From positions 577,171 to 641,170 of the forward strand of contig JBMOLI010000001.1 of NCBI GenBank assembly GCA_049325515.1: a stretch of DNA of 64,000 nt. Reading direction: 5' to 3'. Within the stretch, counting starts at the first letter, position 1, and every line of letters begins with the position of its first letter. Below are positions 33,270 through 40,729 of this stretch, one piece after another. Made by a program: the position numbers and the translations under genes. The notes beneath the pieces were generated by a model, which did no database searches, had not been told where the DNA came from, and saw nothing but the letters and a program-made list of their open reading frames with translations. The DNA comes from Actinomycetota bacterium (lineage in GTDB: Bacteria; Actinomycetota; Acidimicrobiia; Acidimicrobiales; VFJN01).

Positions 33270-33297
33270 GGACCCGACCGGACGGACCGCGCAGACC

Positions 33298-33337
33298 GAA
33301 CGGCGGCCGAGTCTCGTGATACCTTGCCGCGCCGTTC
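33298..33337. repeat. Inverted repeat GAACGGCG ... CGCCGTTC (8-bp arms, 24-nt loop) in the intergenic region
   Basis: Read directly: arms at 33298-33305 and 33330-33337, between the DUF2587 gene and the FAD oxidoreductase. It could be a terminator or attenuator. There is no U-tract. Confidence 0.3.
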
Positions 33338-33353
33338 TACGAGGGGGGTCTCA

Positions 33354-34763
33354 ATGGCGCGGGTGGCGATCGTGGGCGGAGGTGTCGTCGGCCTGTGCGC
33401 CGCGCACCTGCTGGGCAAGGACGGGCACGAGGTCACGGTGCTCGAGCGGGACGCGGCACCGCCGCCCGAGCCCGGAGCGGCCTGGAGCGAGTGGGAGCGG
33501 CGCGGCGTCAACCAGTTCCGCATGCTCCACTTCTTCGCGGCGCGCTTCGCCAACCTCATGAAGGAGAACGCGCCTGAGGTCGTCGACGCCCTGCTCGACG
33601 CAGGCGCGCTGCGGATGAACACGTTCCGCGACGCGCCGGTCGAGGTGACGGGTGGGTTTCGTGAGTCGGACGAGCAGTTCGATGCAGTCACGGCACGACG
33701 GCCTGTGGGCGAGGCGGCCATCGCTCGCGTCACCGAGGCCAACCCGAACGTCACCGTCCGTCGCGGCGTGGCGGTGCGCGGACTGCTCACGGGCGAACCG
33801 ACCGGCGCGGGCGTGCCCCACGTCATCGGCGTGCGCACGGAGGATGGCGAGGACGTGCCGGCTGACCTCGTGATCGACGCCTGCGGTCGCCGCTCGATGC
33901 TCCCCACCCTGCTGGCCGACATCGGAGCGCGCGCTCCGATCGAGGAGAAGGAGGACTGCGGGTTCATCTACTACGGCAGGCACTTCCGCTCGTCCGACGG
34001 GTCCGTGCCGTTCATGATGGGCGGCCCGCTCATGCCATATGGCTCGGTGTCGACCCTAACGCTCCCGGCCGACAACGGAACGTGGGGCGTCGGCATGGTG
34101 ACCAGCGCCAAAGACGCCGCTCTGCGAAAGCTCTCGGACGTCGACGTGTGGATGCGCACCGTCAAGAGCTTCCCGCTGGCAGCGCACTGGTTGGACGGCG
34201 AGCCGCTCGATGACGGCGTCGCCGTGATGGCCAAGATCGAGGACCGTCATCGCAGCTTCGTGGTGGACGGGCAGCCGGTTGCGACCGGCGTTCTCCCACT
34301 CGCGGACTCGTGGGCGGCGACGAACCCTTCGGTCGGTCGGGGCATCTCCATCGGCACCATCCACGCCGTCGCCCTCCGCGATCTGCTGCGCGATCTCACC
34401 GGCGACGCAGTGGAGACGGCACTGCGCTGGCACGAGACAACCGTGGAGACCGTCGAGCCCTGGTACCGGGGCACGCTCGCCTTCGACCGAGGGCGTCTCG
34501 ACGAGATCCACTCCGTGCTCGAGGACAGGCCATTCGAGCCGGAGCCCGAGTACGAGACGACCGCACGACTGCAGTCGGCTGCCATGAAGGACCCGGACCT
34601 GCTCCGCGGGATGCTGAGCATCGCGAGCGTTGTGAAGCTGCCCCACGAGGTGCTCGCCGAGCCCGGGGTGGCCGACCGCGTCGACGAGCTGGGCAAGGGC
34701 TGGCGCGACGAGCCGGCGCCAGGGCCCGATCGGCAAGAGCTGCTCGACATCGTGTCGGCCTGA
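33354..34763 (+). CDS. FAD-dependent oxidoreductase (monooxygenase/reductase-like)
   Basis: Internal ATG (residue 11) preceded by GAGGGGGG. Rossmann motif VAIVGGGVVGLCAAHLLGKDGHEVTVLERD and DLVIDACGRRS (GD-type motif). Confidence 0.8.
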   Translation: MARVAIVGGGVVGLCAAHLLGKDGHEVTVLERDAAPPPEPGAAWSEWERRGVNQFRMLHFFAARFANLMKENAPEVVDALLDAGALRMNTFRDAPVEVTGGFRESDEQFDAVTARRPVGEAAIARVTEANPNVTVRRGVAVRGLLTGEPTGAGVPHVIGVRTEDGEDVPADLVIDACGRRSMLPTLLADIGARAPIEEKEDCGFIYYGRHFRSSDGSVPFMMGGPLMPYGSVSTLTLPADNGTWGVGMVTSAKDAALRKLSDVDVWMRTVKSFPLAAHWLDGEPLDDGVAVMAKIEDRHRSFVVDGQPVATGVLPLADSWAATNPSVGRGISIGTIHAVALRDLLRDLTGDAVETALRWHETTVETVEPWYRGTLAFDRGRLDEIHSVLEDRPFEPEPEYETTARLQSAAMKDPDLLRGMLSIASVVKLPHEVLAEPGVADRVDELGKGWRDEPAPGPDRQELLDIVSA

Positions 34764-34774
34764 CAGGAGGACAG

Positions 34775-35587
34775 ATGAAGATCGATTCGAGTGGCGTCGC
34801 TCTCGACGTACAGGTCGAAGGGGAAGGGCGTCCGGTCGTCCTCGTGCACGGATTTCCTGACACGAAGCGTCTGTGGTCGAAGCAGGTCGCCCCACTGGTT
34901 GCCGCGGGGTTCCAGGTCATCACCTACGACCAGCGCGGCTACGGCGCCAGTGACAAGCCGACCGCCGTCGATGACTACGCCATACCGTTCCTGGCGCTCG
35001 ACCTGACTGCAGTCCTCGACGGGCTCGGCCTCGAGCGAGCGCACATCGTCGGGCACGACTGGGGGGCCGCGGTCGTCTGGGCCACAGCAGCGCTGGCACC
35101 TGACCGGGTCGATCACTTGGTGGCGATGTCGGTCGGCCATCCCAGCGCCTTCGGGGCGATGGACATGGCCCAGCGCGAGAGGTCCTGGTACATGCTGCTG
35201 TTCCAGTTCGCGCCGCAAGCCGAGCAGTGGCTGACCGACAATGACGGCGCCCACTTCCGCGAGTGGTGCCACCATCCCGACTTCGACGAGGTCTTCGCAG
35301 AGCTCCAGCGCGACGGCTCGCTCACACCCGGGCTCAACTACTACCGGGCCAACATCACGCCCGACGCCCTGGTCGGACCGCCACTCGAGCTACCGCCGAT
35401 CCAGGCACCCACCATGGGCATCTGGAGCTCCAACGACTTCGCCCTGACCGAACGGCAGATGGAGGCATCCGGCTCCTTCTGTGCCAACGCCTGGCGCTAC
35501 GAGCGCATCGACGGCCCTGACCACTGGGTGCAGTGGGAGGCCCCCGACGATGTGAACCGCCTCCTCATCGACTTTCTGCCCACCTGA
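34775..35587 (+). CDS. Alpha/beta hydrolase (epoxide hydrolase / haloalkane dehalogenase-like)
   Basis: Internal ATG (residue 156 of track ORF 34310..35587) preceded by AGGAGG. HGFPDTKRLW oxyanion motif and the nucleophile elbow VGHDWGA. Confidence 0.88.
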   Translation: MKIDSSGVALDVQVEGEGRPVVLVHGFPDTKRLWSKQVAPLVAAGFQVITYDQRGYGASDKPTAVDDYAIPFLALDLTAVLDGLGLERAHIVGHDWGAAVVWATAALAPDRVDHLVAMSVGHPSAFGAMDMAQRERSWYMLLFQFAPQAEQWLTDNDGAHFREWCHHPDFDEVFAELQRDGSLTPGLNYYRANITPDALVGPPLELPPIQAPTMGIWSSNDFALTERQMEASGSFCANAWRYERIDGPDHWVQWEAPDDVNRLLIDFLPT

Positions 35588-35629
35588 CCCTGTCACTCGG
35601 GCAACGAGGAGTGCGGCGCGGAGGCGACG

Positions 35630-36487
35630 TCAGGCGACGGTTGCGGTGGCGATGCGTTGCGCTCCCCCGAAGACCACATCGTCGCGTCCTGGGAAGAAGG
35701 TGGAGATCGCCTCGTCCGGAGCGAAGTGCTCGACCGCCGTGTACCCGAGCTCCCGCAGAAGCCGCTCGATCTCGGCGGGCCTGAACCGCCTGATGATGGG
35801 TTCACCCATCTCGGCGACGACCCGCCCGAGGATGCCTTGCGTCTCAGCTCCCAGCCCGCTCAATGCCTCAGACGGCAGGTCGTAGGTCAGCACCACTCGT
35901 GAGCCTGGTGCCGAGGCCCGGATCGTCGTCAACGTCGAGACGATGGCCTCGCGCGTGAGGTACATGATGACGCCGATCCACGAGAACACTGCCCGGGCAC
36001 CGAAGTCGAAGCCTGCTTCCTCGAGACCAGCCTCGAGGGTCTGCCGCTCGAAGTCGACCGGGACGTACACCACCTCGATGCCGGGATCTACCCCGAGCTT
36101 GTGCAGCCGTGAGCGCTTCCACCGCTGTGTGTCCGGATGGTCGACCTCGAACACCCGCAGCCGGCCGGCAAGATCGCCGCGCCGGTAGGCGAAGGTATCG
36201 AGACCGGCGCCCAGGATCACGTACTGGGCCGTGCCCTGAGCCAGCTCCCGCTCGACGACCTGTTCCGGCACGCGAGCCCGAACGCAACACCACCGCGTGA
36301 ACGCGAGCAAGCTCTCGGGTGGCAGCTCCGCCTTCAACCGGTCTCGTATCTCAACGCCCTGCTCACCCGCCAGCGAGATCGCGAGCGGATCGTCGAGCAC
36401 CCACGGAGATGGTTCCTCACGATGGATCGCCCGAGCTGCGGCGGTCATCATCGCCGTCCTGCTCGGACCACCAGCCTCTCGGAACAT
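35630..36487 (-). CDS. Class I SAM-dependent methyltransferase (leucine carboxyl MT-like / mycobacterial O-methyltransferase family)
   Basis: Internal ATG (residue 66). RTAMMTAAARAIH and YVILGAGLDTFAYR are hallmarks of this family. Confidence 0.8.
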   Translation of the reverse strand: MFREAGGPSRTAMMTAAARAIHREEPSPWVLDDPLAISLAGEQGVEIRDRLKAELPPESLLAFTRWCCVRARVPEQVVERELAQGTAQYVILGAGLDTFAYRRGDLAGRLRVFEVDHPDTQRWKRSRLHKLGVDPGIEVVYVPVDFERQTLEAGLEEAGFDFGARAVFSWIGVIMYLTREAIVSTLTTIRASAPGSRVVLTYDLPSEALSGLGAETQGILGRVVAEMGEPIIRRFRPAEIERLLRELGYTAVEHFAPDEAISTFFPGRDDVVFGGAQRIATATVA

Positions 36488-36607
36488 GGTCCAAACATAC
36501 GACGAGGTGAGGGACGGCGAGCACGTACTGCTACGAGGCCGTCGCAGCCGACGCTTGGGAGCCGCCTCGTGGTCACGACCCAGGCGCGGCGAAGCCCCAG
36601 ACCTAGA

Positions 36608-36631
36608 ACCTGAGGCTTCTCGGTGGGCCGT
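36608..36631. repeat. Left copy of the 24-bp direct repeat (tRNA-Val 3'-end remnant; attL/attR-like)
   Basis: ACCTGAGGCTTCTCGGTGGGCCGT is 23/24 identical to 39681-39704. A further GGGACT match follows after a short indel. Confidence 0.85.
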
Positions 36632-36642
36632 TACGACGGGAC

Positions 36643-37368
36643 TTAGCGGGCCCACTCCGCCTGCCGGCCCCCGTAGTCCCAAAGAATCGCGACCGGTTGC
36701 TGTCCCGCGGGAACGCTTAGAGTCACGTAGCCGCGCCGACAGCCGCCGCCGGCCGGGATGTCACCCGAGCTCAAGTCTGGCTCTCTGGCGGTGCCGAAGG
36801 CATCGTCGTACACCCTGTTGTCCGCCATACGTGCCGATAGTGCCAGCGAGTTGTAGGCGGCTTCTTCCTGACCCCCAGCGCATACCTCGACATCAAGCAC
36901 GCCGTACTCGAATCCTGGGTCAGGGGTGCTGTACTCGTTTGCCGGAGGCACCGGTTGCTCCCAGGTGAACACCTGGACGGAGCTTCCGTCCACGTACTCG
37001 ATCTTCTCACCCACGGTGTATCTGGGTTTGGTCGTGGTCGTGGTGGTCGGTCTTGTCGTCGTTGTTCGCTCCGCGGTGGTTGTCGTCTGTGCGGTGCTCT
37101 GTTGTCTCTCGGTAGTTGCAGATGTGGCAGCCGTTTCGCCGTTGTCCTTCGCAGGCTCTGCAGCGGACGCAGCACCGAGGGCGACGCCTGCAACCCCAGC
37201 GAGGATGAGGGTCCAAAGTGGTACGCGCCTCCTCCACCACGGCATCGGCCCATCTCCTGAAGCAGCCGGGTCCGGCACCGGCGACGGGCCCGGCTCCGCC
37301 GGGCGAGGCGGATACCACTTCCCGTCGCTGGCCAGCCACCAGCCCGGACCACCACTCTGGTCGCTCAT
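36643..37368 (-). CDS. Type II membrane protein: N-terminal WW-ASDG-WYPP motif, TM, Thr-rich linker, DUF4352-like extracellular domain
   Basis: 241 aa, ATG preceded by GGAG. MSDQSGGPGWWLASDGKWYPP, RRR + TM (LWTLILAGVAGVALGAASAA), TTTTAERTTTTRPTTTTTTKP. The C-terminal block (VGEKIEYVDG..., GVLDVEVCAGG, RGYVTLSVPAG) looks DUF4352-like. Confidence 0.75.
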   Translation of the reverse strand: MSDQSGGPGWWLASDGKWYPPRPAEPGPSPVPDPAASGDGPMPWWRRRVPLWTLILAGVAGVALGAASAAEPAKDNGETAATSATTERQQSTAQTTTTAERTTTTRPTTTTTTKPRYTVGEKIEYVDGSSVQVFTWEQPVPPANEYSTPDPGFEYGVLDVEVCAGGQEEAAYNSLALSARMADNRVYDDAFGTAREPDLSSGDIPAGGGCRRGYVTLSVPAGQQPVAILWDYGGRQAEWAR

Positions 37369-37485
37369 CTGATCTCCGCCCCTTAGCTCCCAGCCAACCT
37401 ACCCTCAGGACCACTGAACAGCTGAGCCGCGCCACAGTAGACCCGGCGTGCGGACCCGGGGCACCACGAGGAGGTCCGAAACGGG

Positions 37486-38280
37486 TCAGCAGATGCCGGT
37501 GGACTGAGCCCCGTAGCGGGCCTGCTCCGGGGTGAACTGACTGCCGTACTCCGAGGACAGCTGGTCGATCAGACCCTGGCACGAGAACGAAGAGAACTCG
37601 AGGTAGTCCTTGGCCGCACCGGCGGCCTGTTCGTTCCAGTCCGGACTGAGATAGTCCACGGCGAACGTGGCATCCGCGACGGAGAACTGGTCGCCGTACT
37701 CCGACGACAACTGGTCGATCAGGCCCTGCCGCGAGAAGTGAGTGAACGCGAGGTAGTCCTCGGCGGCGCCGACGGCTTGCGCCTGGCTGGGACTCATGGA
37801 GGGGGCGGCCTCGGTGGTGGTCGTCGTGGGGGCCGCGGTCGTGGTCGTCGGCCGTTGCGTCGTCGTGGTCGTCGCCTTCCGGGTCGTGGTTGTCTCCACC
37901 AACGCCTCCTCGGACTGGCCACCGTTCGAGCTGGCGGGCTTCGTCTCGTCCATGCTCGCAAGTGGAGCCATCACAGCCACCAGCACTACGAACGCCGCGG
38001 CGATCTGACCCCAGAGCGGCCAGGCTCGGTACCTCCCCCACACCCGCGCTGGCAGACCGAGCTCAGGCCGGGTCGGCGCCTTGGGGGCCGGCGGCGGGGC
38101 CGATGCAACAGCGCGTTCCGGCGGATACCACTTGCCATCGCTCGCGAGCCACCAACCGGGCGCAGGGGGGCGTTCACCAGGGGGCGCTAGGTACTCGGGC
38201 GGTGTCCAGGCCGATTCCGGCGGGTACCACTTCCCGTCACTGGCGATCCACCAGTCCGGGCCTTGACTGTGATCACTCAT
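37486..38280 (-). CDS. Type II membrane protein: 2x WW-ASDG-WYPP motif, TM, Thr-rich linker, 2x Ltp-like (host cell surface-exposed lipoprotein, PF07553-type) repeats
   Basis: Internal ATG (residue 142 of track ORF 37486..38703) preceded by GGGAGGGAGAG. PDWWIASDGKWYPPE and PGWWLASDGKWYPPE. Two repeats of A..DYL.F..FS.QGLIDQLSSEYG.QF match my recollection of the Ltp family. Confidence 0.8.
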   Translation of the reverse strand: MSDHSQGPDWWIASDGKWYPPESAWTPPEYLAPPGERPPAPGWWLASDGKWYPPERAVASAPPPAPKAPTRPELGLPARVWGRYRAWPLWGQIAAAFVVLVAVMAPLASMDETKPASSNGGQSEEALVETTTTRKATTTTTQRPTTTTAAPTTTTTEAAPSMSPSQAQAVGAAEDYLAFTHFSRQGLIDQLSSEYGDQFSVADATFAVDYLSPDWNEQAAGAAKDYLEFSSFSCQGLIDQLSSEYGSQFTPEQARYGAQSTGIC

Positions 38281-38489
38281 CTCTCCCTCCCTGGATTGGC
38301 GGGACCCTAACTGCGAAACGCAACGGTTGCTGAGGGACTTGAGGCGTGACTGGCAAGGACTGTGCGTCAGGGCAGGCAGAGGAGAAGTCGACAGCCGTTC
38401 GCAGGGCAGGTCGTGATTCGGTTCGCGCCAGCGGCTAGGAGCGCTACGACGTGCTCTACTTTCCATGGCTACGGAGTAGGGGGGCGGCC

Positions 38490-39251
38490 GTGAGCGAGGA
38501 GAGTAGGGGCCCCGGGTGGTGGCTCGCGAGCGATGGCAGGTGGTACCCGCCCGAGCGGCATCCCAACTACCGAGGCCAGAGCACACCGAGCGCGCCACCG
38601 CCACCGAGCGCGCCACCGCCACCGAGCGCGCCACCGCCACCGAGCGCGCCACCGCCACCGAGCGCGCCACCGCCACCGAGCGCGCCACCCCGCGCTTCCG
38701 CAATTCCCCATGGCGCTGCCAACGCGAGGTCGGCCAACACGTCTGCTGCGCCTCGCAAGGTCAGGACTCGGATCCTTATGGCGACGGCCCTCACAGCCGC
38801 TCTTGTCGCTGTGTTTGTGTCGTACGAATTGGGCAGCACATCGCAGGACACGACCACGACAGGGGTAACCAGCCCATTATCGAACCGGCAGTTGAGTGCC
38901 GCCTGGCAGGACGCGCTGGACAACCTCACAGGCGAGCTACGTGCAGCAGGCTTCCCGAACCCTCGAGACGACTCCTACACATCGACCGGTACCGAGGATT
39001 CTGTGCGCGACCTCATGGCGTCGTACCTAAGACCAGAGACTGGCTACCGGAAGCAGCTTCTGGAGTATTACGACCAGACGGAAGGCCGTCTGGCTGACCT
39101 GGACCCTCAATTGCGCGGCCAAATCGCCAAGGCCGACTCTCCGGATGAGATGTGGGCCCTAGTCTTCGAAATCACGGGCCGAGTGGTCCAGCCCCTGAAG
39201 AGCGTCGTCCCGACGACCACCTCCACTGTCGAAACTGCAGGCAGTACATAG
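38490..39251 (+). CDS. Type II membrane protein: WW-ASDG-WYPP motif, (SAPPPP)n repeat, TM, unknown extracellular domain
   Basis: I prefer the in-frame GTG at 38490 (VSEESRGPGWWLASDGRWYPPE), by analogy with the two paralogous N-termini. The track ORF starts at 38451. TM is ILMATALTAALVAVFVSY. I do not recognise the C-terminal 150 aa. Confidence 0.7.
   Translation: MSEESRGPGWWLASDGRWYPPERHPNYRGQSTPSAPPPPSAPPPPSAPPPPSAPPPPSAPPPPSAPPRASAIPHGAANARSANTSAAPRKVRTRILMATALTAALVAVFVSYELGSTSQDTTTTGVTSPLSNRQLSAAWQDALDNLTGELRAAGFPNPRDDSYTSTGTEDSVRDLMASYLRPETGYRKQLLEYYDQTEGRLADLDPQLRGQIAKADSPDEMWALVFEITGRVVQPLKSVVPTTTSTVETAGST
38586..38690 (+). repeat. Perfect 18-bp tandem repeat (CCGAGCGCGCCACCGCCA), 5 full copies + 15-nt partial, in-frame (SAPPPP)n
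   Basis: Read directly. Five identical units occupy 38586-38675, then CCGAGCGCGCCACCC. The repeat lies inside CDS 38490..39251. Confidence 0.95.
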
Positions 39252-39680
39252 GGCAAGGAAGGCCCGGAGGTTGCTACAGCGGTCAGCCCGATACAGGCCC
39301 TGACAAGTACGGAGGGCTCGACTTCTTCTGGAGGTTCGGTTCGGACGACCTGGGTGCGCCCGTGTCTGCCTCGTTCCCGAACCCGTATGAAGACGACGGC
39401 GAAGTGAAATGGAACGGTGCCGGGTCATGGATCGTGAGGCCCACGTTGACCAGAGAACGCGTTCGAGGGTGAGGCTCGGACCCCGTTCGTATGCGCCGTT
39501 GAGCACACCGGAGCCACTGTCGCCCAGGTACCGGGACCGCGCCGGAGAACGTCACACGACTACCGGAGCCGCAACGTCAAGCATCTACCGGGCCCGCACA
39601 CCCGCACCTGGGTGATAAGCACCCAACACAGCGCCCATGCTTCACGGGGCCGAACGGCCAATGTGAATTTCTATGCTCTG

Positions 39681-39704
39681 ACCTGAGGCTTCTTGGTGGG
39701 CCGT
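39681..39704. repeat. Right copy of the 24-bp direct repeat (overlaps the tRNA-Val 3' end)
   Basis: ACCTGAGGCTTCTTGGTGGGCCGT. The last 11 nt (39694-39704) are the 3' end of the tRNA, including the encoded CCA. Confidence 0.85.
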
Positions 39705-39770
39705 AAGGGACTCGAACCCCTGACCCCCTGCGCGTCATGCAGGTGCTCTAGCCAACTGAGCTAACGGCCC
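39694..39770 (-). tRNA. tRNA-Val (anticodon GAC), CCA encoded
   Basis: Manual fold of the reverse strand: GGGCCGT-TA-GCTC-AGTTGGCTA-GAGC-A-CCTGC-ATGACGC-GCAGG-GGGTC-AGGGG-TTCGAGT-CCCTT-ACGGCCC-A-CCA. All four stems pair, and there is a T-loop TTCGAGT. Total 77 nt. Confidence 0.88.
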
Positions 39771-39796: not shown

Positions 39797-40729
39797 TCAT
39801 CTGACGGCCGAACTCGATGGAGTCGCGACCCGGTTGGTCAGGCTGCCGATCCCCTCGACGGCAAGCGTCACCTCATCACCCGCCTGCAGCCACGGGTAGC
39901 GATCACGACCGTGGACCGGGCCCAGCTCGAGGATGCAGCCGCTGCCGACGGTGCCGGAGCCGATGACGTCGCCGGGGCGCAGCACGGTCGACCGCGATGC
40001 GTGGGCCAGAAGGCGGCCCCATCCATGGTGCATGTCGCCCAGCTCGCCTCGGCTCCACTCCTGCCCGTTCACCGAAGCTGTCATCACGCCTCGAGCCACG
40101 CCGTCGCCTCCGACCAGCTCGTCAGGGGTCACGAGCATGGGCCCGAGAGAGGTCGCGAAGTCCTTGCCCTTGGAGGGGCCCAACCCCAGTGCCATCTCGC
40201 GCCTCTGCAGGTCGCGGGCCGACCAGTCGTTCATCACGGTGAACCCGGCGACCACGTCGAGCCACTCGCGCTCGTCCAGGTCGGCGCACTCGACGCCGAC
40301 CACCGCGGCCACCTCGAGCTCGTAGTCGAGCTCGGAGGTCGCCGGTGGGTGCAGCGCCTCACTTGGGCCGAGCACTGCCGCCGGATTCGTGAAGTAGAAG
40401 ACGGGCAGCTCGTACCAGTCGGGCTCCATCTCGAGGCCACGGGTGCGCCTCGCCGTGGCCACATGCGCTTCGAACGCGTAGAAGTCGCGGATCGAAGGCG
40501 GCTCGGGCACGGGTGTGAGGAGAGTGACGTCGGCGATCGGCTCGGGATCGTCGCAGTCCATCGAGCCCAGATCGCGCGCCATCGCCATGGCCAGCAGCAG
40601 GGACTGGCCTTCTCGGCCAGTGCCCGATCCGAGCGAGGCCACGAGCTCCACATCGTCGCGCTCGTCGACCACCACGGCGCCAACGTGGACGTGTCCGTCG
40701 CGCCCGGACCGGTACCGAGCGAGCTTCAC
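39797..40729 (-). CDS. Fumarylacetoacetate hydrolase (FAH) family protein, short (310 aa) form
   Basis: GTG start in a GTGA overlap with the hmgA stop. FAH-fold blocks: PVFYFTNP, YELEVAAVVG, VMNDWSARDLQ, GDVIGSGTVG. Confidence 0.85.
   Translation of the reverse strand: MKLARYRSGRDGHVHVGAVVVDERDDVELVASLGSGTGREGQSLLLAMAMARDLGSMDCDDPEPIADVTLLTPVPEPPSIRDFYAFEAHVATARRTRGLEMEPDWYELPVFYFTNPAAVLGPSEALHPPATSELDYELEVAAVVGVECADLDEREWLDVVAGFTVMNDWSARDLQRREMALGLGPSKGKDFATSLGPMLVTPDELVGGDGVARGVMTASVNGQEWSRGELGDMHHGWGRLLAHASRSTVLRPGDVIGSGTVGSGCILELGPVHGRDRYPWLQAGDEVTLAVEGIGSLTNRVATPSSSAVR

Follow-up and report, generated by a model that had tools for sequence, protein, structure and literature searches.

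An integrase-less 3.1-kb islet at the 3′ end of a tRNA-Val gene in an Acidimicrobiales bacterium, with candidate phage-exclusion genes

The DNA analysed here is a stretch of 64,000 nt (the window) from an Actinomycetota bacterium of the order Acidimicrobiales (NCBI GenBank assembly GCA_049325515.1, contig JBMOLI010000001.1, positions 577,171 to 641,170). Next to its tRNA-Val(GAC) gene, between window positions 36608 and 39704, lies an islet of three protein-coding genes (P1, P2 and P3) bounded by a 24-nt direct repeat. The islet is best read as a decayed integrative element of the cis-mobilisable element (CIME) type that has kept both attachment (att) sites and a set of putative genes for envelope-level phage exclusion, a reading to which we assign a probability of about 0.65. 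An earlier inspection of the letters and open reading frames (ORFs) alone, referred to below as the original prediction, had singled out the same interval.

Results

Two 24-mers in the same orientation, at 36608-36631 and 39681-39704, agree at 23 of 24 positions and delimit a 3,073-bp unit, with an interior of 3,049 bp between the copies. They are the only two matches at three or fewer mismatches in the window, and none was obtained in 100 dinucleotide-preserving shuffles; within these 64 kb the 24-mer is therefore not the dispersed repeat that it might have turned out to be. ARAGORN and Rfam (RF00005, 64.1 bits) agree in placing an intact tRNA-Val gene at 39694-39770 on the minus strand, so that the right-hand, tRNA-proximal copy is made up of the last 11 nt of the tRNA (39694-39704), including an encoded CCA, and 13 nt of downstream flank, with unrelated DNA on the islet side. 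The distal copy has CCG instead of CCA, and beside it a degenerate match to the tRNA T-arm continues on the element side (AGTCCC followed by GTCGTA, compared with AGTCCC followed by TT in the tRNA), the AGTCCC/GGGACT match coming after a 4-nt indel. Base 36643, where this arm ends, doubles as the final base of the P1 stop codon. The coordinates, the single mismatch, the make-up of the right copy and the remnant beside the left one are all as the original prediction had described them. The tRNA is the same as in four related loci (L003, L004, L067 and L085) up to position 75, position 76 being C in those relatives. Among the sequences searched, the islet is carried only by this genome and by one read set of the same organism.

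Features of the islet and its borders (window coordinates, strand, description and basis).
36591-36619, minus strand: ancestral tRNA-Val terminator hairpin with an 11-bp stem (RNA fold; homologous to the L004 and L085 hairpins).
36608-36631, no strand assigned: distal att copy (P-O-B′ type junction), with CCG instead of CCA, 23/24 identical (sequence, repeat search).
36632-36643, minus strand: element-side arm beside the distal core, a degenerate tRNA T-arm match (read from the sequence).
36643-37368, minus strand: P1, 241 aa, with GWW motif, transmembrane (TM) helix, Thr-rich stalk and DUF4352-like ectodomain (Pfam, PHROG).
37486-38280, minus strand: P2, 264 aa, with two GWW motifs, TM helix, Thr-rich stalk and two Ltp repeats (Pfam, PHROG, 4EQQ).
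38281-38489, no strand assigned: intergenic region from which P2 (minus) and P3 (plus) diverge, presumed to be a promoter region (ORF layout).
38490-39251, plus strand: P3, 253 aa, with GWW motif, (SAPPPP)n, TM helix, short Thr stalk and predicted five-helix ectodomain at aa 126-240 (AF2).
38584-38689, plus strand: perfect tandem repeat of 18 nt x 5.9 in P3, encoding SAPPPP (TRF, 100% matches, score 212).
39252-39680, no strand assigned: 429-nt non-coding spacer from P3 to the tRNA-proximal att copy (G+C 63%, the lowest in the islet).
39681-39704, no strand assigned: tRNA-proximal att copy (B-O-P′ type junction), ACCTGAGGCTTCTTGGTGGGCCGT (sequence, repeat search).
39694-39770, minus strand: tRNA-Val(GAC), intact (ARAGORN; Rfam RF00005, 64.1 bits).

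Relatives of the adjacent fumarylacetoacetase (FAH) gene were taken from 80 species-representative genomes. The closest are metagenome-assembled genomes of Microthrixaceae/Acidimicrobiales, with protein identities of 62-79%, and the order HPPD-HGD-FAH-tRNA-Val is kept in eight related Acidimicrobiales/Microthrixaceae genomes. None of these eight has P1, P2, P3 or the LCM methyltransferase gene downstream of tRNA-Val. One metagenome contig (L085) was also included, as the single match of a pattern written for either an occupied or an empty site; the match was of the empty type. In L004 and in L085 the hairpin GAGAAGCCCCAGG-N6-CCTGGGGCTTCGTCGCGC (5′ arm also as GAAGCCCCAGG) comes immediately after the tRNA; it is strong by RNA fold in both (z = -4.7 and -3.5, respectively). 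In the window, the 5′ arm, AGAAGCCTCAGGT, belongs to both repeat copies, and the 3′ arm and the subsequent CGCCGCGC are confined to the outer side of the distal copy (36591-36601 and lower positions). The hairpin thus stands today after the P2-P1 gene pair, its 5′ arm in the distal repeat and its 3′ arm in host DNA. From this split it follows that 3,049 bp were inserted after the tRNA 3′ end and ahead of the terminator's second half, with duplication of 24 bp.

The one mismatch between the copies agrees with the classical integration scheme: it falls at tRNA position 76, which is A in the proximal copy (the encoded CCA) and G in the distal copy; at this place the relatives have C-G with one extra base, and an encoded CCA is absent. 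Since G is found in the distal copy and A in the proximal one, the crossover would lie 5′ of position 76, within ACGGCCCACC. A lineage-specific T is present in both copies (GCCTCAGG versus GCCCCAGG in the relatives). These comparisons support the reading of the repeat pair as attL and attR at a tRNA 3′ end, as had been proposed, at genus/family distance only: L004 and L085, in which tRNA-Val and hairpin are contiguous, provide the empty-type sites that had been called for, and both are relatives at that distance. By reading only, L004 and L005 have ordinary genes and no integrase-like ORF downstream of tRNA-Val.

The interior of the islet has a G+C content of 65.8%, compared with 69.2% for the window, which makes it the lowest 3-kb stretch of the window (standard deviation of 3049-bp windows, 1.4%). 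Values of 60-64% are confined to 38800-39700. The low G+C claimed for the islet was thus right in direction but overstated in size, having been put at 57-60% against 70% or more. The G+C content at third codon positions (GC3) is 0.71 for P1, 0.72 for P3 and 0.83 for P2, compared with 0.854 ± 0.035 for 35 typical genes, and in codon usage P1 and P3 depart from the local norm by about 4 standard deviations. The G+C deviation of the islet is real but modest, and is carried by P1, P3 and the 429-nt spacer.

The only coding sequences of the islet, P1, P2 and P3, were confirmed to be built to one unusual common plan. In order, this comprises a GWW motif, a Pro-rich spacer, basic residues, one hydrophobic helix, acidic residues, a Thr-rich stalk and a C-terminal domain that is distinct in each protein. 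The N-terminal motif reads M-S-D/E-x-S-x-G-P-G-W-W-L/I-A-S-D-G-K/R-W-Y-P-P-E (in short, GWWxASDGxWYPP) and occurs twice in P2. From the positive-inside rule, all three proteins are predicted to be single-pass membrane proteins of type II (N-in, C-out). The GWW motif is absent from Pfam and is predicted to form a small beta-hairpin (pLDDT, the predicted local distance difference test score, ∼88 over residues 11-20). The DNA that encodes it (segments 37307-37370, 38120-38183, 38219-38282 and 38511-38557) is 81-89% identical among the three genes, the ectodomains of which are unrelated, and ∼86% identical to genes of another organism (L087), a pattern that looks like module shuffling or gene conversion. 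Within the window, the motif is found only in the three islet genes. Elsewhere, in chromosomal surroundings of an ordinary kind, fusions of the module to many unrelated domains are found, RDD being one of them. Its use as an islet marker was rejected, three GWW proteins (P0003, P0004 and P0007) lying in housekeeping contexts without tRNAs; since GWW proteins with other ectodomains occur in such contexts, the motif is a lineage-wide module.

Public gene calls on the source contig shorten P2 to 103 aa and P1 to 200 aa, with loss of the GWW motif and the TM helix. Many database Ltp homologues are exactly 103 aa long, which suggests the same systematic truncation. As these calls remove the shared N-terminal architecture, automated annotation would miss the pattern.

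P2 gave the clearest assignment. It matches PF07553 over two stretches, its two helix-turn-helix-like Ltp repeats (E = 5e-34; 116.6 bits, with a cut-off of 23.2), and a PHROG annotated as superinfection exclusion (E = 4.7e-40), and aligns to residues 16-103 of the structure of TP-J34 Ltp, 4EQQ (E = 2.5e-6). Relatives of P2 were found in 139 phage records, several of them annotated as superinfection exclusion or lipoprotein. The contexts of its close homologues are mixed: one lies beside a Prim-Pol/AAA_25 gene, one 3.5 kb from a tRNA-Val without a repeat, and others are chromosomal. At a locus of the first kind (L102, 1261-4646), the Ltp homologue shares 74% identity with the P2 ectodomain and lies about 0.9 kb from the Prim-Pol/AAA_25 gene, near a DUF4190 gene and small divergent ORFs; this looks like a small integrative or replicative element, on a contig not long enough for its ends to be seen.

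P1 was matched to Pfam PF11611 (DUF4352) with E = 1.6e-5 and 25.6 bits, the curated cut-off being 25.9, and to phrog_806 with E = 1.9e-11. P3 has no Pfam, PHROG, NCBIfam or PADLOC family. Searches with full-length P3 were swamped by low-complexity words. With the ectodomain, a word-indexed search returned nothing, and an exhaustive one was needed; over 1.84 billion representatives it yielded only three clusters of true homologues. The AF2 model of the ectodomain is a confident five-helix domain (pLDDT 91), for which PDB and BFVD held no significant match (E≥1). In a public short-read assembly of this organism, a break falls within the tandem repeat of P3 (L082 starts at 38613), and the copy number of this repeat, at 38584-38689, could be variable. 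The divergent region between P2 and P3, 38281-38489, may act as a promoter region; no sigma-70 consensus was matched there, and consensus scans for promoters and terminators were uninformative.

The homology of two of the three ectodomains points to an envelope-level phage-exclusion function for the islet. By analogy, P2 most likely blocks siphophage genome injection as TP-J34 Ltp does, P1 most likely acts like the mycobacterial protein Mpr, and P3 is a candidate for a third exclusion factor with a new helical domain. The original prediction had held this site to be a promising one for an undescribed accessory function; of the three proteins only P3 is new, P2 and P1 being of the already known Ltp and DUF4352/Mpr-like types.

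The islet had been claimed to lack an integrase, excisionase or transposase, and all scans bore this out. No recombinase, transposase or excisionase family of Pfam, PHROGs, NCBIfam or PADLOC was matched by P1, P2 or P3, and six-frame stop-free fragments of at least 65 aa from 39230-39700 matched nothing in Pfam at E≤10. Signatures of tyrosine or serine recombinases were not seen in ORFs of at least 150 aa in six frames of the window, a crude motif scan that is weak evidence. By blastn, the 429-nt spacer matched nothing among GenBank phages and PLSDB plasmids, and it had no match in Rfam, which across the islet region gives the tRNA alone. Short arm-type repeats near the att copies were not in excess over shuffles. 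Family scans identified no relaxase or transfer domains in the three coding sequences, and the islet holds no structural, lysis, replication or immunity genes of a prophage. No other element with the att core was found in IMG/VR or in one metagenome scan.

A homologue of P3 is present on three 99.9%-identical ENA contigs (L087-L089) from another metagenome. In L087, 257 nt separate it from the 3′ end of a tRNA-Cys(GCA) gene, on which it converges as P3 does on tRNA-Val. A perfect 49-nt repeat of this tRNA, from the anticodon loop to CCA, occurs in two copies 3,388 bp apart (L087, 1627-5063; also in L088 and L089). The 3.34 kb between them encode, besides the P3 homologue, two membrane proteins, one GWW/zinc-ribbon and the other Pro-rich, with about 600 nt beside the distal copy in which there is no recognisable gene. 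Neither an integrase-sized ORF nor a Pfam recombinase was found in the islet of L087-L089. The window islet and that of L087 have no DNA similarity beyond the motif-coding segments and part of P3. On a further short contig (L086, 106-1771), a gap of 14 nt separates a P3 homologue from the GWW-anchored DUF4352-like gene that comes after it; P3-type and P1-type genes thus co-occur in a second organism, in a different order.

Discussion

We infer both an integrase mechanism and a loss of the integrase. On this model, a circular element would have integrated site-specifically, in a reaction of the tyrosine-integrase type, into the tRNA-Val(GAC) 3′ end in an Acidimicrobiales/Microthrixaceae host. 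Its attP would have matched the host over 24 bp, namely the last 11 nt of the tRNA and 13 nt of the terminator 5′ arm. With a crossover within ACGGCCCACC, the tRNA would have been rebuilt from element DNA, now encoding CCA, and the original tRNA 3′ end and terminator would have been moved 3 kb away. Under this scheme, the empty attB would be the tRNA plus GAGAAGCCTCAGGTTCTAGGTCTGGGGCTTC, and the circular attP would be GCTAAGTCCCGTCGTA plus the core plus CAGAGCATAGAAATTC. The integrase, excisionase, replication and transfer genes would have been lost, and the att-proximal conversion genes would remain. These would be three genes of the lysogenic-conversion type, each for a predicted type II membrane protein with a surface-exposed domain, with P2-P1 now ending at the old tRNA terminator.

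Integrase-less islands flanked by att sites are already known, as are exclusion proteins of the Ltp and Mpr types. CIMEs of the Streptococcus ICE and IME systems (ICE, integrative and conjugative element; IME, integrative and mobilisable element) keep attL and attR and are devoid of integration and transfer genes (PMC5704250). A CIME is also related to an autonomous ICE, IME or phage with the same att and is mobilised in cis once it has undergone accretion with an incoming element. The islet resembles CIMEs in having attL and attR as its borders, next to the 3′ end of a conserved gene, and in holding accessory genes only, but it resides in Acidimicrobiales rather than Firmicutes, at a tRNA-Val gene and with no tandem partner present, and no related autonomous ICE, IME or phage was identified for it in IMG/VR or one metagenome scan. 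In the Streptococcus thermophilus phage TP-J34, ltp and int are direct neighbours at the prophage's att end (PMC3952083), which would make the survival of such genes after internal decay plausible. Like TP-J34 Ltp, P2 has both Ltp repeats, aligns over the solved domain 4EQQ, is predicted to be surface-exposed and is encoded on integrated foreign DNA near an att site. In contrast to it, P2 has a TM helix, two cytoplasmic GWW motifs and a long Thr-rich stalk with no lipoprotein signal peptide, and neither int nor a repressor gene adjoins it. Mpr of Mycobacterium smegmatis, which confers resistance to phage D29, consists of a TM segment, a low-complexity region and an extracytoplasmic DUF4352 domain (PMC9262609, PMC12596739). 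By the description of its layout it resembles P1, with its short cytoplasmic N-terminus, single TM helix, low-complexity stalk and extracytoplasmic DUF4352-type domain; P1 differs in the GWW motif of its N-terminus, which is unreported for Mpr, and in a Pfam score just under the cut-off.

The islet also invites comparison with remnants of another kind. Decayed prophages and actinomycete integrative and conjugative elements at actinobacterial tRNA genes are integrated at the tRNA 3′ end, have direct repeats and a lower G+C content, and keep conversion genes. Compared with these, the islet is unusually small and clean, without fragments of structural, lysis, replication or regulatory genes, and has a look-alike at another tRNA in another organism. 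What is new here is the host lineage, the common GWW anchor, the rare domain of P3, and the fact that a cargo-only islet is met again at a second tRNA.

Several observations weigh against a decayed, phage-excluding element. As to the insertion, the empty sites come from distant relatives of different species (FAH is 69% identical in L004), no empty-site allele was found in the same species, and the neighbourhood downstream of tRNA-Val is variable among the relatives in any case. The GC3 of P2 is normal (0.83). As to decay, no pseudogene debris was detected in the 429-nt spacer by six-frame Pfam or blastn searches, so that decay is assumed and not seen; and IMG/VR held no match to the att cores, to P1 or to the P3-family alignment, and no integrase-bearing autonomous relative was found. 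As to function, P1 stays 0.3 bit under the Pfam cut-off, P2 is TM-anchored with a cytoplasmic N-terminus of 95 aa and has no lipobox on reading the sequence, P1 and P3 had no match in 50,697 GenBank phage records, and no PADLOC defence model matched at a convincing level. Because GWW proteins occur in ordinary chromosomal contexts, the architecture is itself no marker of mobile or defence function.

Of the alternatives, one concerns the cargo and not its arrival: the three proteins might be unrelated to phages and form a lineage-specific family of ordinary envelope proteins, for cell-wall, adhesion or signalling functions, on acquired DNA. The occurrence of the GWW module on many unrelated domains (RDD among them) in chromosomal neighbourhoods, the wide distribution of DUF4352 and Ltp domains in non-phage genes, the lack of a homologue of known function for P3 and of a convincing PADLOC match all speak for it. 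Against these stand the best homologies of two of the three ectodomains, which are to families with experimental anti-phage roles, and the Ltp relatives of P2 in phage genomes, some annotated as superinfection exclusion, with one near a Prim-Pol/AAA_25 mobile-element gene; moreover, the genes lie on integrated foreign DNA. We regard this alternative as doubtful, although it deserves to be taken seriously. That the repeat is a chance or dispersed one and the region native DNA can, in contrast, be given next to no credence. The small G+C deviation is all that would favour it, and it conflicts with the absence of matches in shuffles beside two copies in 64 kb, with the positions of these copies (one overlapping the tRNA 3′ end, the other abutting the displaced ancestral terminator), and with the codon usage of P1 and P3, some 4 standard deviations off the local norm.

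Two further alternatives accept the insertion and differ over how it came about. A single RecA-dependent (Campbell-type) crossover of a circular DNA carrying ∼24-35 bp of tRNA-like sequence, with no site-specific recombinase, would account for the absent integrase and leave the same footprint, a repeat of the shared segment and an intact tRNA, so that sequence alone cannot distinguish it from the action of an integrase. However, 24 bp at best just reaches the length that RecA recombination usually demands, insertion at a tRNA 3′ end with regeneration of the tRNA is the hallmark of tyrosine integrases, and the 49-nt core of the second islet, from anticodon loop to CCA, is of the classical integrase att type; this route appears very unlikely. 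As the main rival, the islet may be complete as it stands, a miniature integrative element, satellite-like or mobilisable in cis or trans, that is moved by the integrase of a helper phage or ICE. Such an origin would fit two independent integrase-less islets of 3.07 and 3.39 kb with repeats matching at 23/24 and 49/49 positions, the placement of a P3 homologue beside the tRNA-proximal att site in the same orientation in both, and a spacer in which no pseudogene debris was found. It would fit, too, the lineage-specific T in both repeat copies (GCCTCAGG versus GCCCCAGG), as expected of an attP that had cycled in the host lineage. Yet the islets differ in the tRNA used and in the sublocation (the stretch from anticodon loop to CCA at tRNA-Cys, the last 11 nt with flank at tRNA-Val), for which different helpers would be needed, and they share no DNA similarity beyond the motif segments and part of P3. 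Arm-type repeats do not rise above chance, neither a helper nor a circular junction nor a second integration site turned up in IMG/VR and a metagenome scan, and two cases are too few for a family. A miniature element is on balance unlikely, and the decayed CIME-type element is preferred to it.

More speculative still, and to be held rather improbable, is the idea that an undescribed family of miniature integrase-less satellites of Acidimicrobiia-like bacteria takes in both the window islet and its tRNA-Cys counterpart in L087. Such satellites would borrow helper integrases and spread GWW-anchored phage-exclusion cassettes, with the five-helix ectodomain of P3 as a new superinfection-exclusion module. 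If the second islet is more than a coincidence, small cargo-only att-flanked elements may recurrently carry such genes. Apart from this, the islet is a clean and well-delimited integration at a tRNA gene in a poorly studied, mostly uncultured order of actinobacteria, and it draws attention to GWWxASDGxWYPP, a short and conserved cytoplasmic module that occurs in fusion with many different ectodomains. Members of the Ltp and DUF4352/Mpr domain families are grouped in it with a third protein of very rare ectodomain; since P3 keeps this company, there are grounds of guilt by association to test it as an exclusion factor.

Two observations concern the surroundings of the islet. In the FAH ORF, ARAGORN called a 98-nt 'tRNA-Thr(cgt)' at 40582-40679, which has no Rfam support at the gathering threshold and is probably a false positive. 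On the other side, between the ancestral terminator and the block syntenic with L001 and L002, the interval 33270-36607 encodes an FAD-dependent oxidoreductase, an alpha/beta hydrolase and the LCM-family methyltransferase, none of which is present at that place in L001, L002 or L085. The possibility of a larger island, extending to about 33270, was discarded, as there is no further tRNA fragment and the three extra genes have normal codon usage and lie outside the ancestral terminator.

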